Positions 116-8,025 of a DNA stretch of 8,025 nucleotides are shown here, piece after piece. The stretch lies in IMG/VR virus record IMGVR_UViG_2585427729_000009, positions 1 to 8,025 of that record; one strand, written 5' to 3'. The notes under the pieces were generated by a model. That model was not told the DNA's origin. It was given only the letters and a program-made list of their open reading frames with translations, and searched no databases. A program made the translations under genes and the position numbers. The first letter of the stretch is position 1; every line of letters begins with the position of its first letter. This stretch comes from a virus. Its lineage: Duplodnaviria > Heunggongvirae > Uroviricota > Caudoviricetes.

Positions 116-412
116 TTATACCTCTGAATCAATATCAACCTGATGGTGAGCAATGGTTTCAACCATGTACCGGATGTGTTCTGCCATGCGCTCCTGAAAC
201 TCAACATCGTCATCAAACGCACGGGTAATGGCTTTTTTGCTGGCCCCGTGGCGTTGCAAATGACCGATGCATAGCGATTCAAACAGGTGCTGGGGCAGGC
301 CTTTTTCCATGTCGTCTGCCAGTTCTGCCTCTTTCTCTTCACGGGCTATCTGCTGGTAGTGACGCGCCCAGCTCTGAGCCTCAAGACGATCCTGAATGTA
401 ATAAGCGTTCAT
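116..412 (-). CDS. gam: Gam (GamS form), RecBCD inhibitor
   Basis: 98-aa [24 protein letters not shown]...[10 protein letters not shown] matches lambda Gam from its internal Met onward, with a few substitutions relative to my memory of lambda. Position between bet and kil is as in lambda. Confidence 0.9.
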
Positions 413-836: not shown

Positions 837-1205
837 TCAGGCGGCCTTGATAGTCATATCATCTGAATCAAATATTTCTGATGTATCGATATCGGTAATT
901 CTTATTCCTTCACTACCATCCATTGGAGGCCATCCTTCCTGACCATTTCCATCATTCCAGTCGAACTCACACACAACACCATATGCATTTAAGTCGCTTG
1001 AAATTGCTATAAGCAGAGCATGTTGCGCCAGCATGATTAATACAGCATTTAATACAGAGCCGTGTTTATTGAGTCGGTATTCAGAGTCTGACCAGAAATT
1101 ATTAATCTGGTGAAGTTTTTCCTCTGTCATTACGTCATGGTCGATTTCAATTTCTATTGATGCTTTCCAGTCGTAATCAATGATGTATTTTTTGATGTTT
1201 GACAT
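837..1205 (-). CDS. ea10: Ea10 (lambda early protein, ssDNA-binding-like), 122 aa
   Basis: Track ORF of 122 aa, MSNIKKYIIDYDWKASIEIEIDHDVMTEEKL..., at the lambda ea10 position and length relative to cIII. Confidence 0.85.
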   Translation of the reverse strand: MSNIKKYIIDYDWKASIEIEIDHDVMTEEKLHQINNFWSDSEYRLNKHGSVLNAVLIMLAQHALLIAISSDLNAYGVVCEFDWNDGNGQEGWPPMDGSEGIRITDIDTSEIFDSDDMTIKAA

Positions 1206-1393: not shown

Positions 1394-2275
1394 TTATGAC
1401 CACTTTTTGTTTGGGTTTCGTTGGTGAGCGTGGTTTATAGGATTATTTGATATACCCCATAACTCTGACTCGCTTATCTCTACACGAGAGAAAGACCTGC
1501 TTTCTTTCAGTTCTTTTATAAACCTAGAACCTAAGATGACATCTATTGTACCAGAAAGTTCTTGTAAAAGATCTTTGTTTTTTCTGAGGAAGAAAATATC
1601 TTCTTTATATTTAATTTTTACATAGAATTTATTCTGTATTTTTAATATATCAAAGCATGGCAGATATCTATATCCCTCATATTTTCGCCACTGCTTAACA
1701 ATTATAACATCTTTTTCATTTACTGCATTAATCAGCCCAAGACCAAGTACAGGTATGAATATTCTATTGTCTGCCGAAAGCGTACAATTATCACCACCAG
1801 GCAAATATGTATAAATCATGTCGGAATTTTTATACGCATCAACGAATGCACGTAAGAAGCGTACATATTTTTGCCATCCGTTTATACCGAATTTACCATA
1901 TAAGTATTCTTTATTTGTTAGAAGAAAACTATTTGTATCAGGATCCTTATCTACAGACCTGTCGATAAGATCTCCAACTACGTTTACAAAGTCAAAGACA
2001 GAGTTTAATAAGAACAATTGTCTTTCAGTAGGGCGAATTTCAATTATGTAGCCAGGATGAAGACGATATTGCATCTGCTTACGAAGTATACCGAACGCTT
2101 GGGTCCGAGCATCTGAAAGCAACTTCTTGTCGCCATCGCCGTGAGCATTGTTTCTAATAAAACTGATATAATTTGCTAATTTTTCAGCCTCTTTTTTGTG
2201 TTTTTTTCGCTCTGATGCTGAGTCTATTGGTTTTGGTATGGACTTGTAATCAATCTTCTTCATTACGTACCTCAT
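1394..2275 (-). CDS. Hypothetical protein (293 aa), AT-rich accessory gene (moron) translationally coupled to N; function unknown, candidate exclusion/defence gene
   Basis: Long uninterrupted ORF (MRYVMKKIDYKSIPKPID...) with visibly low GC compared with flanking lambda-like genes. Its ATG rc(2273..2275) overlaps the N stop rc(2272..2274) as ATGA. An alternative start is Met5, rc(2261..2263), preceded by GAGG. I recognise no motif in it. Confidence 0.75.
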   Translation of the reverse strand: MRYVMKKIDYKSIPKPIDSASERKKHKKEAEKLANYISFIRNNAHGDGDKKLLSDARTQAFGILRKQMQYRLHPGYIIEIRPTERQLFLLNSVFDFVNVVGDLIDRSVDKDPDTNSFLLTNKEYLYGKFGINGWQKYVRFLRAFVDAYKNSDMIYTYLPGGDNCTLSADNRIFIPVLGLGLINAVNEKDVIIVKQWRKYEGYRYLPCFDILKIQNKFYVKIKYKEDIFFLRKNKDLLQELSGTIDVILGSRFIKELKESRSFSRVEISESELWGISNNPINHAHQRNPNKKWS

Positions 2276-2977: not shown

Positions 2978-3637
2978 TTAACTAAATGTCTCTTCAGGCC
3001 ACTGGCTGGCGATAACTTTCCCTACTACGGAACAGCTATCATTGCATGGAATCATTGGATATTGCGGGTTTAGTGGCTGTAGGAACACCTGACCGCTATC
3101 CCTGATCAGTTTCTTGAAGGTAAACTCGTCACCACCAAGTCTGGCTATGCAGAAATCACCTGGCTCAACAGCCTGCTCAGGGTCAACGAGAATTAACATC
3201 CCGTCAGGAAAGCTTGGCTTGGATCCTGTTGGCGCGGTCATGGAATTACCTTCAACTTCAAGCCAGAACGCACAATCACTGGCTTTTTTGGTTGTGCTGA
3301 CCCATCTCTCCGCATCACCTTTGGTAAAGGTTCTAAGCTCAGGCGAGAACATCCCGGCCTGAACATGAGAAAAAACAGGGTACTCATATTGTTTTTTAAC
3401 GGGGGCAGATGAGTATTCGCCAACAGGTGAAAATGTACCGTCGTGGTTGAATGAGACGTTATCAATACCAAGGTATTTAAACACCACACCAATCTCGTCA
3501 AGAGATGGATGACGAGATCCGCGCAACCAGTGACCAATTCCACCCTGCGTCATACCAAGCTCTTCAGCTAACTTCTCTTGAGTTATGCCGAGCTCTTTCA
3601 TTCTGGATCTAGCCAGTTCATACCATTTCATTTTCAT
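2978..3637 (-). CDS. cI: CI-type immunity repressor; lambda-like C-terminal dimerisation/autocleavage (S24 peptidase) domain with a non-lambda N-terminal HTH (XRE-type) domain
   Basis: C-terminal part ...[39 protein letters not shown]...[12 protein letters not shown] matches lambda CI. N-terminal part [44 protein letters not shown]... does not. Start chosen at Met22 of the track ORF (rc 3635..3637) from HTH spacing; Met24 (3631) or the ORF start (3700) are alternatives. Confidence 0.85.
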
Positions 3638-3646
3638 ACCCTTATT

Positions 3647-3661
3647 ATTACGCTCTGTACT
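3647..3661. promoter_or_regulatory. Putative operator OR3
   Basis: attacgctctgtact (a-TAC-N5-GTACT), next to the cI start and overlapping the presumed pRM region. Confidence 0.4.
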
Positions 3662-3672
3662 AAAACCATCCA

Positions 3673-3687
3673 TGCACAAGATGTATT
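3673..3687. promoter_or_regulatory. Putative operator OR2
   Basis: tgcacaagatgtatt shares the AC-N5-GTA-tt core with the other candidate sites. Confidence 0.35.
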
Positions 3688-3694
3688 TTTTTGT

Positions 3695-3723
3695 TTGCAT
3701 TCTAAAAGTACATATCGTATTAT
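3695..3723 (+). promoter_or_regulatory. pR early rightward promoter (candidate)
   Basis: TTGCAT (3695..3700), 17-nt spacer, TATTAT (3718..3723), about 27 nt upstream of the cro ATG, which has a GGAGGG Shine-Dalgarno at 3741..3746. Confidence 0.5.
3707..3721. promoter_or_regulatory. Putative operator OR1
   Basis: agtacatatcgtatt matches the minus-strand reading of OL1 (AGTACAAATCGTACT) at 13 of 15 positions and overlaps the pR spacer and -10, as OL1 overlaps pL. Confidence 0.5.
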
Positions 3724-3749
3724 TGTTTCATGGTTACTATGGAGGGCAT

Positions 3750-3965
3750 ATGAGCAACCTACGAAAATATCGAGAGTCACTGAATATCTCTCAAACAACA
3801 CTTGCTAAGGCAGTTGGATGCACACAGGGAGCTATCGGACATTGGGAATCTGGTCGTCGCTTCCCAGACCTTAAAACATGCCGTGCTCTTGTTGAGTGCC
3901 TAAACAAGTTAGGCGCAAAAGTCAGTCTTGATGACGTGTTCCCGCCGGAACACAAAGCCGCTTAA
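3750..3965 (+). CDS. cro: Cro-like repressor (71 aa, HTH XRE-type; not lambda Cro)
   Basis: MSNLRKYRESLNISQTTLAKAVGCTQGAIGHWESGRRFPDLK..., with start ATG 3750..3752 after a strong SD. The track ORF from 3585 is an upstream extension. Divergent from cI and followed by nutR, as for lambda cro. Confidence 0.85.
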   Translation: MSNLRKYRESLNISQTTLAKAVGCTQGAIGHWESGRRFPDLKTCRALVECLNKLGAKVSLDDVFPPEHKAA

Positions 3966-4084: not shown

Positions 4085-4378
4085 ATGGTTCGTGCAAACA
4101 AACGCAACGAGGCTCTACGAATCGAGAGTGCGTTGCTTAACAAAATCGCAATGCTTGGAACTGAGAAGACAGCGGAAGCTGTGGGAGTTGATAAGTCGCA
4201 GATCAGCAGGTGGAAGAGAGACTGGATTCCAAAGTTCTCAATGCTGCTTGCTGTTCTTGAATGGGGGGTCGTTGACGACGACATGGCTCGATTGGCGCGA
4301 CAAGTTGCTGCGATTCTCACCAATAAAAAACGCCCGGCGGCAACCGAGCGTTCTGAACAAATCCAGATGGAGTTCTGA
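4085..4378 (+). CDS. cII: CII transcriptional activator (97 aa)
   Basis: MVRANKRNEALRIESALLNKIAMLGTEKTAEAVGVDKSQISRWKRDWIPKFSMLLAVLEWGVVDDDMARLARQVAAILTNKKRPAATERSEQIQMEF. Start at 4085 after TAAGGAAATACTTACAT; the track ORF from 4025 is an upstream extension. Confidence 0.93.
   Translation: MVRANKRNEALRIESALLNKIAMLGTEKTAEAVGVDKSQISRWKRDWIPKFSMLLAVLEWGVVDDDMARLARQVAAILTNKKRPAATERSEQIQMEF
4094..4107 (-). promoter_or_regulatory. CII-binding site of pRE (TTGC-N6-TTGC) overlapping the cII 5' end
   Basis: rc(4094..4107)=TTGCGTTTGTTTGC, the direct-repeat CII recognition element; the pRE -10 would lie just downstream on the minus strand, around 4070..4080. Confidence 0.55.
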
Positions 4379-4410: not shown

Positions 4411-5310
4411 ATGACAAATACAGCAAAAATACTCAACTTCGGCAGAGGTAACTTTGCCGGACAGGAGCGTAATGTGGCAGATCTCGATGATGGTTACGCC
4501 AGACTATCAAATATGCTGCTTGAGGCTTATTCAGGCGCAGATCTGACCAAGCGACAGTTTAAAGTGCTGCTTGCCATTCTGCGTAAAACCTATGGGTGGA
4601 ATAAACCAATGGACAGAATCACCGATTCTCAACTTAGCGAGATTACAAAGTTACCTGTCAAACGGTGCAATGAAGCCAAGTTAGAACTCGTCAGAATGAA
4701 TATTATCAAGCAGCAAGGCGGCATGTTTGGACCAAATAAAAACATCTCAGAATGGTGTATCCCTCAAAACGAGGGAAAATCCCCTAAAACGAGGGATAAA
4801 ACATCCCTCAAATTGGGGGATTGCTATCCCTCAAAACAGGGGAACACAAAAGACACTAATACAAAAGAAAAAAGAAAAGATTATTCGTCCGAGAATTCTG
4901 GCGAATCCTCTGACCAGCCAGAAAACGATCTTTCTGTGGTTAAACCGGATGCTGCAATTCAGAGCGGCAGCAGGTGGGGGACAGCAGAAGACCTGACCGC
5001 CGCAGAGTGGATGTTTGACATGGTGAAGACTATCGCGCCATCAGCCAGAAAACCGAATTTTGCAGGGTGGGCTAACGATATCCGCCTGATGCGTGAACGT
5101 GACGGACGTAACCACCGCGATATGTGTGTGCTGTTCCGCTGGGCCTGCCAGGACAACTTCTGGTCCGGTAATGTGCTGAGCCCGGCCAAACTCCGCGACA
5201 AGTGGACCCAGCTCGAAATCAACCGTAACAAGCAACAGGCAGTAGTGACAGCCAGCAAACCAAAACTCGACTTGACAAACACAGACTGGATTTACGGGGT
5301 GGATTTATGA
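4411..5310 (+). CDS. O: O replication initiator protein (299 aa)
   Basis: MTNTAKILNFGRGNFAGQERNVADLDDGYARLSNMLLEAY... matches lambda O along its length; contains the ori iterons. Confidence 0.95.
   Translation: MTNTAKILNFGRGNFAGQERNVADLDDGYARLSNMLLEAYSGADLTKRQFKVLLAILRKTYGWNKPMDRITDSQLSEITKLPVKRCNEAKLELVRMNIIKQQGGMFGPNKNISEWCIPQNEGKSPKTRDKTSLKLGDCYPSKQGNTKDTNTKEKRKDYSSENSGESSDQPENDLSVVKPDAAIQSGSRWGTAEDLTAAEWMFDMVKTIAPSARKPNFAGWANDIRLMRERDGRNHRDMCVLFRWACQDNFWSGNVLSPAKLRDKWTQLEINRNKQQAVVTASKPKLDLTNTDWIYGVDL
4760..4890. other. Origin of replication (ori-lambda type): four about 18-bp iterons plus adjacent AT-rich tract, inside the O gene
   Basis: Iterons tccctcaaaacgaggga (4760..4776), tcccctaaaacgaggga (4780..4796), atccctcaaattggggga (4803..4820), atccctcaaaacagggga (4826..4843), followed by an A-rich stretch to about 4890. 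Confidence 0.85.
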
Positions 5311-6008
5311 AAAACATCGCCGCACAGATGGTTAACTTTGACCGTGAGCAGATGCGTCGGATCGCCAACAACATGCCGGAACAGTACGACGAAAAGCCTC
5401 AGGTACAGCAGGTAGCGCAGATCATCAACGGTGTGTTCAGCCAGTTACTGGCAACTTTCCCGGCGAGCCTGGCTAACCGTGACCAGAACGAACTGAACGA
5501 AATCCGCCGCCAGTGGGTTCTGGCTTTCCGGGAAAACGGGATCACCACAATGGAACAGGTTAACGCAGGAATGCGCGTAGCCCGTCGGCAGAATCGACCA
5601 TTTCTGCCATCACCCGGGCAGTTTGTTGCATGGTGCCGGGAAGAAGCATCCGTTATCGCCGGACTGCCAAACGCCAGCGAGCTGGTTGATATGGTTTACG
5701 AGTATTGCCGGAAGCGTGGCCTGTATCCAGATGCAGAGTCTTATCCGTGGAAATCAAACGCGCACTACTGGCTGGTTACCAACCTGTACCAGAACATGCG
5801 GGCCAATGCGCTGACTGACGCGGAATTACGGCGTAAGGCTGCCGATGAGCTGACCTGTATGACAGCGCGAATTAACTGTGGTGAGACTATACCTGAACCA
5901 GTAAAACAACTTCCTGTCATGGGCGGCAGACCTCTAAATCGAGCACAGGCTCTGGCGAAGATCGCAGAAATTAAAGCTAAGTTCGGACTGAAAGGAGCAA
6001 GTGTATGA
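5307..6008 (+). CDS. P: P replication protein (DnaB helicase loader), 233 aa
   Basis: MKNIAAQMVNFDREQMRRIANNMPEQYDEKPQVQQ... matches lambda P; its ATG overlaps the O stop (ATGA at 5307..5310). Confidence 0.95.
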   Translation: MKNIAAQMVNFDREQMRRIANNMPEQYDEKPQVQQVAQIINGVFSQLLATFPASLANRDQNELNEIRRQWVLAFRENGITTMEQVNAGMRVARRQNRPFLPSPGQFVAWCREEASVIAGLPNASELVDMVYEYCRKRGLYPDAESYPWKSNAHYWLVTNLYQNMRANALTDAELRRKAADELTCMTARINCGETIPEPVKQLPVMGGRPLNRAQALAKIAEIKAKFGLKGASV

Positions 6009-6295
6009 CGGGCAAAGAGGCAATTATTCATTACCTCGGAACGCATAAGAGCTTCTGTGCACAGGACGTTTCCGCGCTAACAGGCGCAACAGTAACCAGC
6101 ATAAATCAGGCCGCGGCTAAAATGGCACGGGCAGGTCTTCTGGTTATCGAAGGTAAGGTCTGGCGAACGGTGTATTACCGGTTCGCTACCAGAGAAGAAC
6201 GGGAAGGAAAGGTGAGCACGAACCTGATTTTTAAGGAGTGTCGCCAGAGTGCCGCGATGAAACGGGTATTGGCGGTATATGGAGTTAAAAGATGA
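6005..6295 (+). CDS. ren: Ren (Rex-exclusion escape protein), 96 aa
   Basis: MTGKEAIIHYLGTH...VLAVYGVKR matches lambda Ren; its ATG overlaps the P stop (ATGA). Confidence 0.9.
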   Translation: MTGKEAIIHYLGTHKSFCAQDVSALTGATVTSINQAAAKMARAGLLVIEGKVWRTVYYRFATREEREGKVSTNLIFKECRQSAAMKRVLAVYGVKR

Positions 6296-6320
6296 CCATC
6301 TACATCACTGAGCTAATAAC

Positions 6321-6352
6321 AGGCCTGCTGGTAATCGCAGGCCTTTTTATTT
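6321..6352 (+). terminator. tR2-like intrinsic terminator between ren and ninB
   Basis: Stem AGGCCTGC (6321..6328), loop tggtaatc, GCAGGCCT (6337..6344), then TTTTTATTT. Confidence 0.65.
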
Positions 6353-6368
6353 GGGGGAGAGGGAAGTC

Positions 6369-6809
6369 ATGAAAAAACTAACCTTTGAAATTCGATCTCC
6401 AGCACATCAGCAAAACGCTATTCACGCGGTACAGCAAATTCTTCCAGACCCAACCAAACCAATCGTAGTAACCATTCAGGAACGCAACCGCAGCTTAGAC
6501 CAGAATCGAAAGCTTTGGGCTTGCCTTGGTGACGTCTCTCGTCAGGTTGAATGGCATGGTCGCTGGCTGGATGCAGAAAGCTGGAAGTGCGTTTTTACAG
6601 CAGCATTAAAGCAGCAGGACGTTGTTCCTAACCTTGCCGGGAATGGCTTTGTGGTAATAGGCCAGTCAACCAGCAGGATGCGTGTAAGCGAATTTGCGGA
6701 GCTATTAGAGCTTATACAGGCATTCGGTACAGAGCGTGGCGTTAAGTGGTCAGACGAAGCGCGACTGGCTCTCGAATGGAAAGCGCGATGGGGAGATCGG
6801 GCTGCATGA
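6369..6809 (+). CDS. ninB: NinB (Orf-family recombination mediator), 146 aa
   Basis: MKKLTFEIRSPAHQQNAIHAVQQILPDPTKPIVVTIQERNRSLDQNRKLW... Start ATG 6369 after GGAGAGGGAAG; the track ORF from 6351 begins at a TTG and is an extension. Confidence 0.9.
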   Translation: MKKLTFEIRSPAHQQNAIHAVQQILPDPTKPIVVTIQERNRSLDQNRKLWACLGDVSRQVEWHGRWLDAESWKCVFTAALKQQDVVPNLAGNGFVVIGQSTSRMRVSEFAELLELIQAFGTERGVKWSDEARLALEWKARWGDRAA

Positions 6810-7333
6810 CTATCAAATCAAATACGCCATCACACGACAAGGACTGCTGGCAAACGCCGCTCTGGCTTTTTGATGCACTGGATATTGAGTTTGGATTCTG
6901 GCTGGATTCGGCAGCGAGCGACAAAAATGCTCTGTGCGCTCACTGGCTAACTGAGGCTGACGACGCGCTAAATTCTGAGTGGATAAGCCACGGTGCAATC
7001 TGGAATAACCCACCGTACAGCAATATCAGGCCGTGGGTGGAAAAAGCCGCTGAGCAGTGCATACAACAACGACAGACGGTAGTGATGCTTGTGCCAGAGG
7101 ATATGTCTGTCGGATGGTTCAGCAAGGCTCTGGAGAGTGTCGACGAAGTTCGCATTATCACTGATGGACGGATTAATTTTATCGAACCATCGACAGGGCT
7201 GGAGAAGAAGGGAAACAGCAAAGGCTCCATGCTGCTGATTTGGCGACCGTTCATCAGTCCTCGACGGATGTTTACTACCGTATCCAAAGCGGCATTGATG
7301 GCGATCGGGCAGGGCGTCAGGAGGGCGGCATGA
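6806..7333 (+). CDS. Phage Dam-like DNA N6-adenine methyltransferase (about 175 aa), orphan
   Basis: Begins [31 protein letters not shown]... and contains the catalytic tetrapeptide NPPY (IWNNPPYSN). ATG 6806..6808 overlaps the ninB stop (ATGA). No adjacent restriction endonuclease gene. Confidence 0.7.
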
Positions 7334-7506
7334 GGCGACAACGACGAAGTATCACCGACATCATCTGCGAAAACTGCAAATACCTTCCAACGAAACGCTC
7401 CAGAAATAAACGCAAGCCAATCCCAAAAGAATCTGACGTAAAAACCTTCAATTACACGGCTCACCTGTGGGATATCCGGTGGCTAAGACATCGTGCGAGG
7501 AAATGA
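7330..7506 (+). CDS. Small basic NinE/NinD-family nin-region protein (58 aa, CxxC)
   Basis: [61 protein letters not shown] 7330 overlaps the methyltransferase stop (ATGA); the track ORF from 7240 is an extension. Confidence 0.7.
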
Positions 7507-7853
7507 CAATGGATTATTCACAGTTAAGTGATTTTGAAATTAACAAGCGAGTATTTAAAGCGATAGTTGGGGCAAAACCATTAGGTTATCCGCACAACGC
7601 AGATGGACGGTCTGTTGGCAATGAAGCAAATGGTAATTATCGATGGTACGACTACTGCAATAACCCAGCAGACGCATGGCCGATTATCACTGAAAACAAC
7701 ATCAGCATAATTTTAGACAATCCCTCAATGCCGTGCGCCACAGACAACGCAAGGGACTTGTTTGATGATGCCGGACCGAATGTTGGTGTCGCATATGACA
7801 ATCCACTCCGTGCCGCCATGATTGTCTTTCTCATGATGCGGAGAATCCAATAA
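7503..7853 (+). CDS. Hypothetical nin-region protein (116 aa)
   Basis: [37 protein letters not shown]...; ATG 7503..7505 overlaps the preceding stop (ATGA). Start chosen by coupling; the track ORF starts 12 codons upstream at 7467. No motif recognised. Confidence 0.6.
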
Positions 7854-8025
7854 TGCTTAGCCCATCCCAAACCCTTCAATACCAGAAAGAAAGCGTCGAG
7901 CGAGCTTTAACGTGCGCTAACTGCGGTCAGAAGCTGCATGTGCTGGAAGTTCACGTGTGCTCCGATTGCTGCGCAGAGCTGATGAGCGATCCGAATAGCT
8001 CAATGTACGAGGAAGAAGACGATGA
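7853..8025 (+). CDS. ninF: NinF (Cys-rich small protein), about 57 codons present; 3' end runs off the window
   Basis: From ATG 7853 (TAATG overlap with the preceding stop): [57 protein letters not shown]... with no stop before the window end. Confidence 0.75.
   Translation, partial: MLSPSQTLQYQKESVERALTCANCGQKLHVLEVHVCSDCCAELMSDPNSSMYEEEDD

Follow-up and report, generated by a model that had tools for sequence, protein, structure and literature searches.

Gene content of the early region

The stretch of DNA analysed here (the window; 8,025 nt) is the early region of a lambdoid prophage, as judged from its list of open reading frames and from profile searches. The genes and features on which the analysis draws are listed below by window position.

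116-412, minus strand: gam
837-1205, minus strand: DUF2528/Ea10-like gene
1394-2275, minus strand: open reading frame of 293 aa
2272-2595, minus strand: N
2978-3700, minus strand: LexA/S24-type repressor
3747-3965: Cro-like helix-turn-helix (HTH) protein
4085-4378: cII
4411-5310: O
5307-6008: P
6005-6295: ren
6321-6353, plus strand: intrinsic terminator between ren and ninB (terminator scan)
6369-6809, plus strand: ninB (Orf recombination mediator; PF05772, E 1e-54; phrog_72)
6790-6795, plus strand: Shine-Dalgarno (SD)-like GGGGAG in the 3' end of ninB, 10 nt before the methyltransferase ATG
6806-7333, plus strand: phage N6-adenine DNA methyltransferase, orphan, 175 aa (PF05869/TIGR01712)
6848-6859, plus strand: W15-Q-T17-P18, N-terminal W-x-T-P motif of the methyltransferase
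6902-6919, plus strand: L33-D34-S-A-A-S, motif I-like segment with a putative AdoMet-binding role
7007-7018, plus strand: N68-P69-P70-Y71, catalytic motif IV (NPPY)
7330-7506, plus strand: ninE (PF05322, E 7e-44)
7503 or 7509 to 7853, plus strand: ninX (PF10765, E 3e-16)
7853-8025, plus strand: ninF, continuing past the window end (PF05810, phrog_672)

Two short sites were also counted across the window. CTGCAG (PstI/EcoGIII) occurs 0 times in the 8 kb, where about two sites would be expected by length (8025/4096), a difference that is not significant. GATC occurs 24 times against an expectation of 31-35, a count that is mildly low, not significant and uninformative at such a length.

Start codon and conserved motifs of the methyltransferase

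The open reading frame that follows ninB ends at 7333, and translation from the ATG at 6806 gives a product of 175 aa with the C-terminus GVRRAA. The initial annotation had described an open reading frame of about this size carrying an NPPY motif, and both were found as described, with IWNNPPYSN at residues 65-73 and NPPY itself at residues 68-71. The start at 6806 is correctly placed, because homologues are approximately 175-183 aa long and share the N-terminal residues of this product, and because GGGGAG precedes it by 10 nt. The phage 434 record has an annotated ribosome-binding site at the corresponding position. A longer form starting at GTG 6746 was considered and rejected on homologue length and on the position of the SD sequence.

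Conservation was assessed in an alignment of 28 homologues with 59-98% identity and in a broader alignment of 12 sequences, extending down to 31% identity and including the Dam proteins of phages HP1 and T1. NPPY, T17-P18 and D34 are invariant among the 28 homologues; across the 12 sequences N68-P69-P70, T17-P18 and D34 remain invariant, with Y71 common to HP1 and T1 Dam. W15 is nearly invariant in both alignments, and segments of the form VVML-P-D and DE-R..GR..F are invariant or nearly so in the first. On the strength of a fold match to M.TaqI-type enzymes, W-x-T-P would correspond to motif X, the cofactor contact of gamma-type amino-methyltransferases.

Family membership and predicted fold

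Profile searches place the product firmly in the Dam family of phage methyltransferases, as had been proposed, and the absence of a methyltransferase profile match that had been named as a refutation is clearly not the case. The match to PF05869 ('Dam') has an E-value of 7e-65 and a score of 218.2 bits against a cut-off of 28.1, spanning profile positions 1-167 of 169, while the equivalog model TIGR01712 ('phage N-6-adenine-methyltransferase') scores 263.6 bits against a cut-off of 97.05 over its full length (1-165 of 165). The protein also matches phrog_111 ('DNA methyltransferase', E 6.5e-88), and its best PADLOC matches are models for an 'orphan methyltransferase'. The description 'Dam-like' stands as a functional label but not as a statement of kinship with the Dam family of E. 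coli and T4. The protein lies outside that alpha class, which is marked by PF02086 and the order FxGxG, recognition domain, DPPY; the Pfam search with the methyltransferase returned no match to PF02086. What the E. coli and T4 enzymes have in common with the protein encoded in the window is (D/N)PPY chemistry and probably the product, G-m6A-TC.

The predicted structure is a single Rossmann-type domain without a separate target-recognition domain. In a fold search with this model, the catalytic core alone aligned to the larger methyltransferases M.TaqI, CamA and HsdM; M.TaqI (17% identity) differs in possessing a large C-terminal recognition domain. The top match was the mRNA cap m6Am methyltransferase PCIF1, and the other top matches were DNA N6-adenine methyltransferases. 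Confidence in the model is low for the AdoMet-loop residues 34-36. Structure searches found no sequence-level PDB match for the methyltransferase and no solved structure of the family. As modelled, the protein would be an N6-adenine amino-methyltransferase core with a layout closest to the gamma class, lacking the recognition domain.

Several candidate relatives were examined and set aside. The non-specific phage adenine methyltransferases (M.EcoGII, PhiOS31_p25 and L24 of phiP27) belong to a different family and have no similarity to the window protein: BLASTP against the phiP27 protein NP_543076.1 returned only a 12-residue match around PPY (E 0.14), and the Pfam search gave no match to PF01555. 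This phiP27 homologue of PhiOS31_p25 is probably M.EcoGII-like, judging by size and position. The prophage 'Dam homolog' M.EcoMIV of ST131 falls in PF02086 and is likewise of a different family. The oomycete DAMT enzymes surfaced through a text match to PF05869; their source paper describes N6-adenineMlase-domain proteins, by name another Pfam family. For M.EcoGV, listed as GATC-specific by PacBio, identity with the window methyltransferase is not stated in the related papers or their supplements.

Characterised relatives

The PF05869 family is very large, yet we found only two members characterised in the literature, and these are the closest characterised relatives of the window protein: HP1 Dam (38% identity) and T1 Dam (33%). 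HP1 Dam (orf13, NP_043482.1) is of the same size (173 aa), matches PF05869 with an E-value of 7e-75 and aligns to the window protein with an E-value of 1e-32. It reportedly methylates GATC. The gene is the last in the early operon of a temperate phage; HP1 differs from the phage in the window in being P2-like, with a different host and different neighbouring genes. PMC7556043 cites HP1 Dam as a Dam-like gene that was cloned (Piekarowicz and Bujnicki 1999).

T1 Dam (YP_003925.1, 237 aa) is also an orphan phage enzyme. It aligns over 158 aa (E 1e-26) and shares W-x-T-P, LD-x-AA and NPPY with the window protein, from which it differs by an N-terminal extension of about 45 aa and a 14-aa insertion; T1 itself is virulent. 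DNA of T1 grown in a dam- host is sensitive to DpnI, from which it follows that T1 Dam methylates GATC (PMC10470545). Without T1 dam, phage DNA is only partly methylated in a dam+ host, and the burst falls to about 60% even when the cells are dam+ (PMC10470545). This 40% loss suggests a real role in fitness. The DNA of lambda and P22 virions is reported to be under-methylated by host Dam (PMC8022706).

Gene context, overlaps and transcription

The genes around the methyltransferase are O, P, ren, ninB, ninE, ninX and ninF. Neither the window nor 18.5 kb around the methyltransferase gene of an E. coli prophage with a 100% identical copy contains a restriction endonuclease gene, or any nuclease other than Holliday-junction resolvases; in the prophage the sole nuclease is the junction resolvase RusA. 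A type II restriction-modification system, with its adjacent cognate endonuclease, is thus not present at the locus, and the earlier view of the gene as a probable orphan gains support from this context and from the PADLOC models. The initial annotation was also right to separate it from the longer ninC product of lambda. Lambda NinC (290 aa; lambda locus L002, 2482-3354) occupies the same slot directly after ninB and is also joined to it by a 4-nt overlap, but it contains a PAPS-reductase domain (PF01507; 36.4 bits, cut-off 22.5) and is unrelated in fold and chemistry.

The methyltransferase start does overlap the ninB stop, as had been noted, through an ATGA at 6806-6809 in which the TGA ends ninB and the ATG begins the methyltransferase. 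A second ATGA at 7330-7333 joins the methyltransferase stop to the ninE start, with AGGAGG at 7319-7324, and in TAATG at 7851-7855 the ninX TAA and the ninF ATG have one base in common. ATGA is also present at 7503-7506; however, the RefSeq homologue of ninX starts at the next ATG (window 7509), which is better spaced from GAGGAA at 7497-7502 than is 7503, so the ninE/ninX junction may be a 2-nt gap and not an overlap. The proposal of a four-gene chain led by the methyltransferase therefore holds for the junctions at 6806, 7330 and TAATG, is doubtful at 7503, and fails as to its starting point: O/P (5307) and P/ren (6005) are likewise joined by ATGA, and the first gene after the terminator is ninB. 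With overlaps at 6806, 7330, 7853, 5307 and 6005 and an SD sequence within the upstream gene, the locus has the organization of a nin gene string. As a tetranucleotide ATGA shows no enrichment across the window (37 occurrences against 37.7 expected), and the non-random feature is its placement at successive gene junctions, not its count. [quoted passage not shown] 1995).

The terminator between ren and ninB consists of an 8-bp GC-rich stem (6321-6344) with an 8-nt loop, followed by the tail TTTTTATTT, and the phage 434 record likewise marks this element as a terminator. The ren-ninB spacer (window 6290-6372) is identical to lambda 40565-40647 at 82 of 83 positions. The terminator occupies the position of lambda tR2, which N antitermination overrides. 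The promoter scan returned no promoter-like site between the terminator and the methyltransferase gene; three weak matches further downstream were at chance level. Because the gene lies downstream of a tR2-type terminator, it would most likely be a delayed-early lytic gene that depends on N and is silent in the lysogen. As a separate observation, the immunity region of the window differs from those of both lambda and 434, yet the ren-ninB spacer is nearly identical to that of lambda.

Distribution and mobility

The methyltransferase gene is already known, ordinary and routinely annotated. The 528-bp gene was found at 95-100% identity in 1574 records, corresponding to 1566 of 5426 complete E. 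coli genomes (~29%); four complete E. coli chromosomes carry it with 100% nucleotide identity, and ~1550 more at 95-99%. The E. coli matches listed carry the annotation 'phage N-6-adenine-methyltransferase', and the product of the identical gene appears under that name in RefSeq (WP_000153306.1). Among phages, the 1.7-kb ninB-ninF segment has matches in 433 records, including HK544, HF4s, Sf101, SfI, Sf6, mEp043, HK140, IME10, 434 and more than 100 Stx-converting phages, and most of the phage matches listed carry a methyltransferase annotation. A tblastn search detected a methyltransferase homologue in 1903 phage records, and an exhaustive HMMER scan recovered 8805 cluster representatives (50% identity) at E <= 1e-3. 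The large clusters at 95-98% identity are of full length (175-176 aa) and contain thousands of member sequences, which, like the frequency in E. coli, speaks for maintenance of the gene and so for an active enzyme.

Phage 434 has the same order as the window, with ren, the terminator, ninB, a 'DNA adenine methyltransferase' (CPT_434_59) and ninE. The lambdoid copies (434, HK544, Sf6, Sf101, SfI, mEp043, HK140 and the Stx phages) represent the same gene, situated between ninB and ninE or ninD, and share the ATGA overlaps and the upstream terminator; they differ only in the flanking mosaic, ninX being present or absent and the immunity region variable. More distant copies are placed otherwise. 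Yersinia prophages carry a 68%-identical homologue at the int end of the left operon, near int/xis (loci L007-L009, 3001-3543), and in Edwardsiella a 72%-identical homologue precedes rusA (locus L010, 3001-3528). Since these homologues keep 4-nt overlaps with unrelated upstream genes despite their varied positions and different neighbours, the gene appears to move as a cassette within early operons.

Members of the family also occur as parts of larger proteins. A PAPS-reductase domain is fused to a Dam-family member in one protein (P0195) and in Vibrio phage p0018. Separately, relatives with ~50% identity to the Dam domain were found as C-terminal fusions to a C5-cytosine methylase (PF00145) in proteins of 253-691 aa (P0139, P0140, P0147, P0240 and P0135). 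From their domain content, these fusions would be dual-modification enzymes.

Proposed function and alternative explanations

The explanation that we favour, with a probability of about 0.75, is that the gene encodes an active phage Dam-family N6-adenine methyltransferase which, as far as sequence comparison can indicate, would act during lytic growth by methylating replicating phage DNA at GATC. AdoMet-dependent N6-adenine methylation of DNA would be performed by the bare Rossmann-fold core, with no partner endonuclease. [quoted passage not shown] GATC sites on newly replicated phage DNA would then be methylated, as T1 Dam does, and a fast-replicating genome would thus be kept from under-methylation by host Dam. 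The benefit would be phage yield, with possible protection in hosts that restrict unmethylated GATC. A role in restriction evasion is plausible; within the species GATC methylation would have little anti-restriction value, because E. coli hosts are Dam+.

The least certain part of this proposal is the target sequence. Pairwise identities among the window protein, HP1 Dam and T1 Dam are similar (31-36%), 36 positions are identical in all three, including several in the 121-146 hairpin, and this rough equidistance makes a common GATC specificity the most parsimonious assumption. Methyltransferase specificity often changes at 31-38% identity. By analogy with these relatives, we regard GATC specificity of the window clade as somewhat better than an even bet, and a different or relaxed specificity as a minority prospect.

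A wider alternative, which we consider unlikely, holds that the enzyme belongs to the same family but has another or a relaxed adenine specificity, its main role being broad protection against type I, II or III restriction or against other defences. The 175-aa protein lacks a target-recognition domain, only its catalytic core can be aligned to M.TaqI, CamA and HsdM, and its identity to the GATC-specific T1 enzyme and HP1 Dam is only 31-38%, all of which would suit such an enzyme, as would the existence of non-specific phage adenine methyltransferases (M.EcoGII, PMC5778455). Those known non-specific enzymes belong to other families, however, and the phiP27 homologue is dissimilar, while within the present family T1 Dam is GATC-specific and HP1 Dam was cloned as a Dam. 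The fusions of the Dam domain to C5-cytosine methylases and PAPS-reductase domains, and the presence of the PAPS-reductase-domain protein NinC in the lambda slot after ninB, also fit a protective role, and the PAPS-Dam fusion, singled out as one of two genes specific to Vibrio phages able to defeat a Dnd/retron-armed host, is a candidate for counter-defence (bioRxiv 10.1101/2021.05.05.442762). The exchange of lambda NinC for Dam at this position, taken with the Dam-PAPS_reduct fusions elsewhere, hints that the slot is swappable. A more speculative extension, to which we give slightly less weight again, is that the slot after ninB is an interchangeable site for DNA-modification or counter-defence genes, in which the methyltransferase would act against host defence through a non-GATC specificity or substrate; a relaxed sequence context or replication intermediates as substrate, beyond topping up Dam, would be examples.

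Epigenetic control had been suggested as another possible role, and in its strongest form the methyltransferase would be expressed in the lysogen and regulate host or prophage genes, as a case of lysogenic conversion. Host Dam influences how stable the lysogeny of Stx phages is (Murphy et al. 2008, cited in PMC3342100), and a putative Dam gene of Phi24B may supplement host Dam in lysogens according to its expression pattern (PMC3342100). In the window, by contrast, the gene is in the repressor-controlled pR operon behind a strong tR2-type terminator and has no promoter-like element between the two, which makes a role in the lysogen very improbable. Methylome studies of E. coli lysogens, moreover, could assign no motif to silent methyltransferases of prophages (PMC4659465, PMC6602927); this fits a silent gene, although host Dam would mask GATC activity. 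Slightly less probable still is a protein that is catalytically inactive or acts on RNA instead of DNA. PCIF1 as best structural match would point to RNA, but the other leading fold matches are DNA N6-adenine methyltransferases, the family member T1 Dam methylates DNA, and hundreds of intact homologues retain the catalytic and cofactor motifs without change.

An open reading frame beside N

Outside the nin region, the 293-aa open reading frame at 1394-2275 (minus strand) lies directly downstream of N and has a low GC content (34.6%). It has no Pfam or PADLOC match, and among 50,697 phage records it was found only in two records of phage 434, where it is annotated as 'Nun C-terminal peptide-containing protein'. 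The C-terminal 14 residues of the product (INHAHQRNPNKKWS) match those of HK022 Nun (VNHAHQRNPNKKWS) at 13 of 14 positions, and it is this end of Nun that arrests RNA polymerase. The open reading frame may encode an exclusion factor whose N-terminal targeting part is different.
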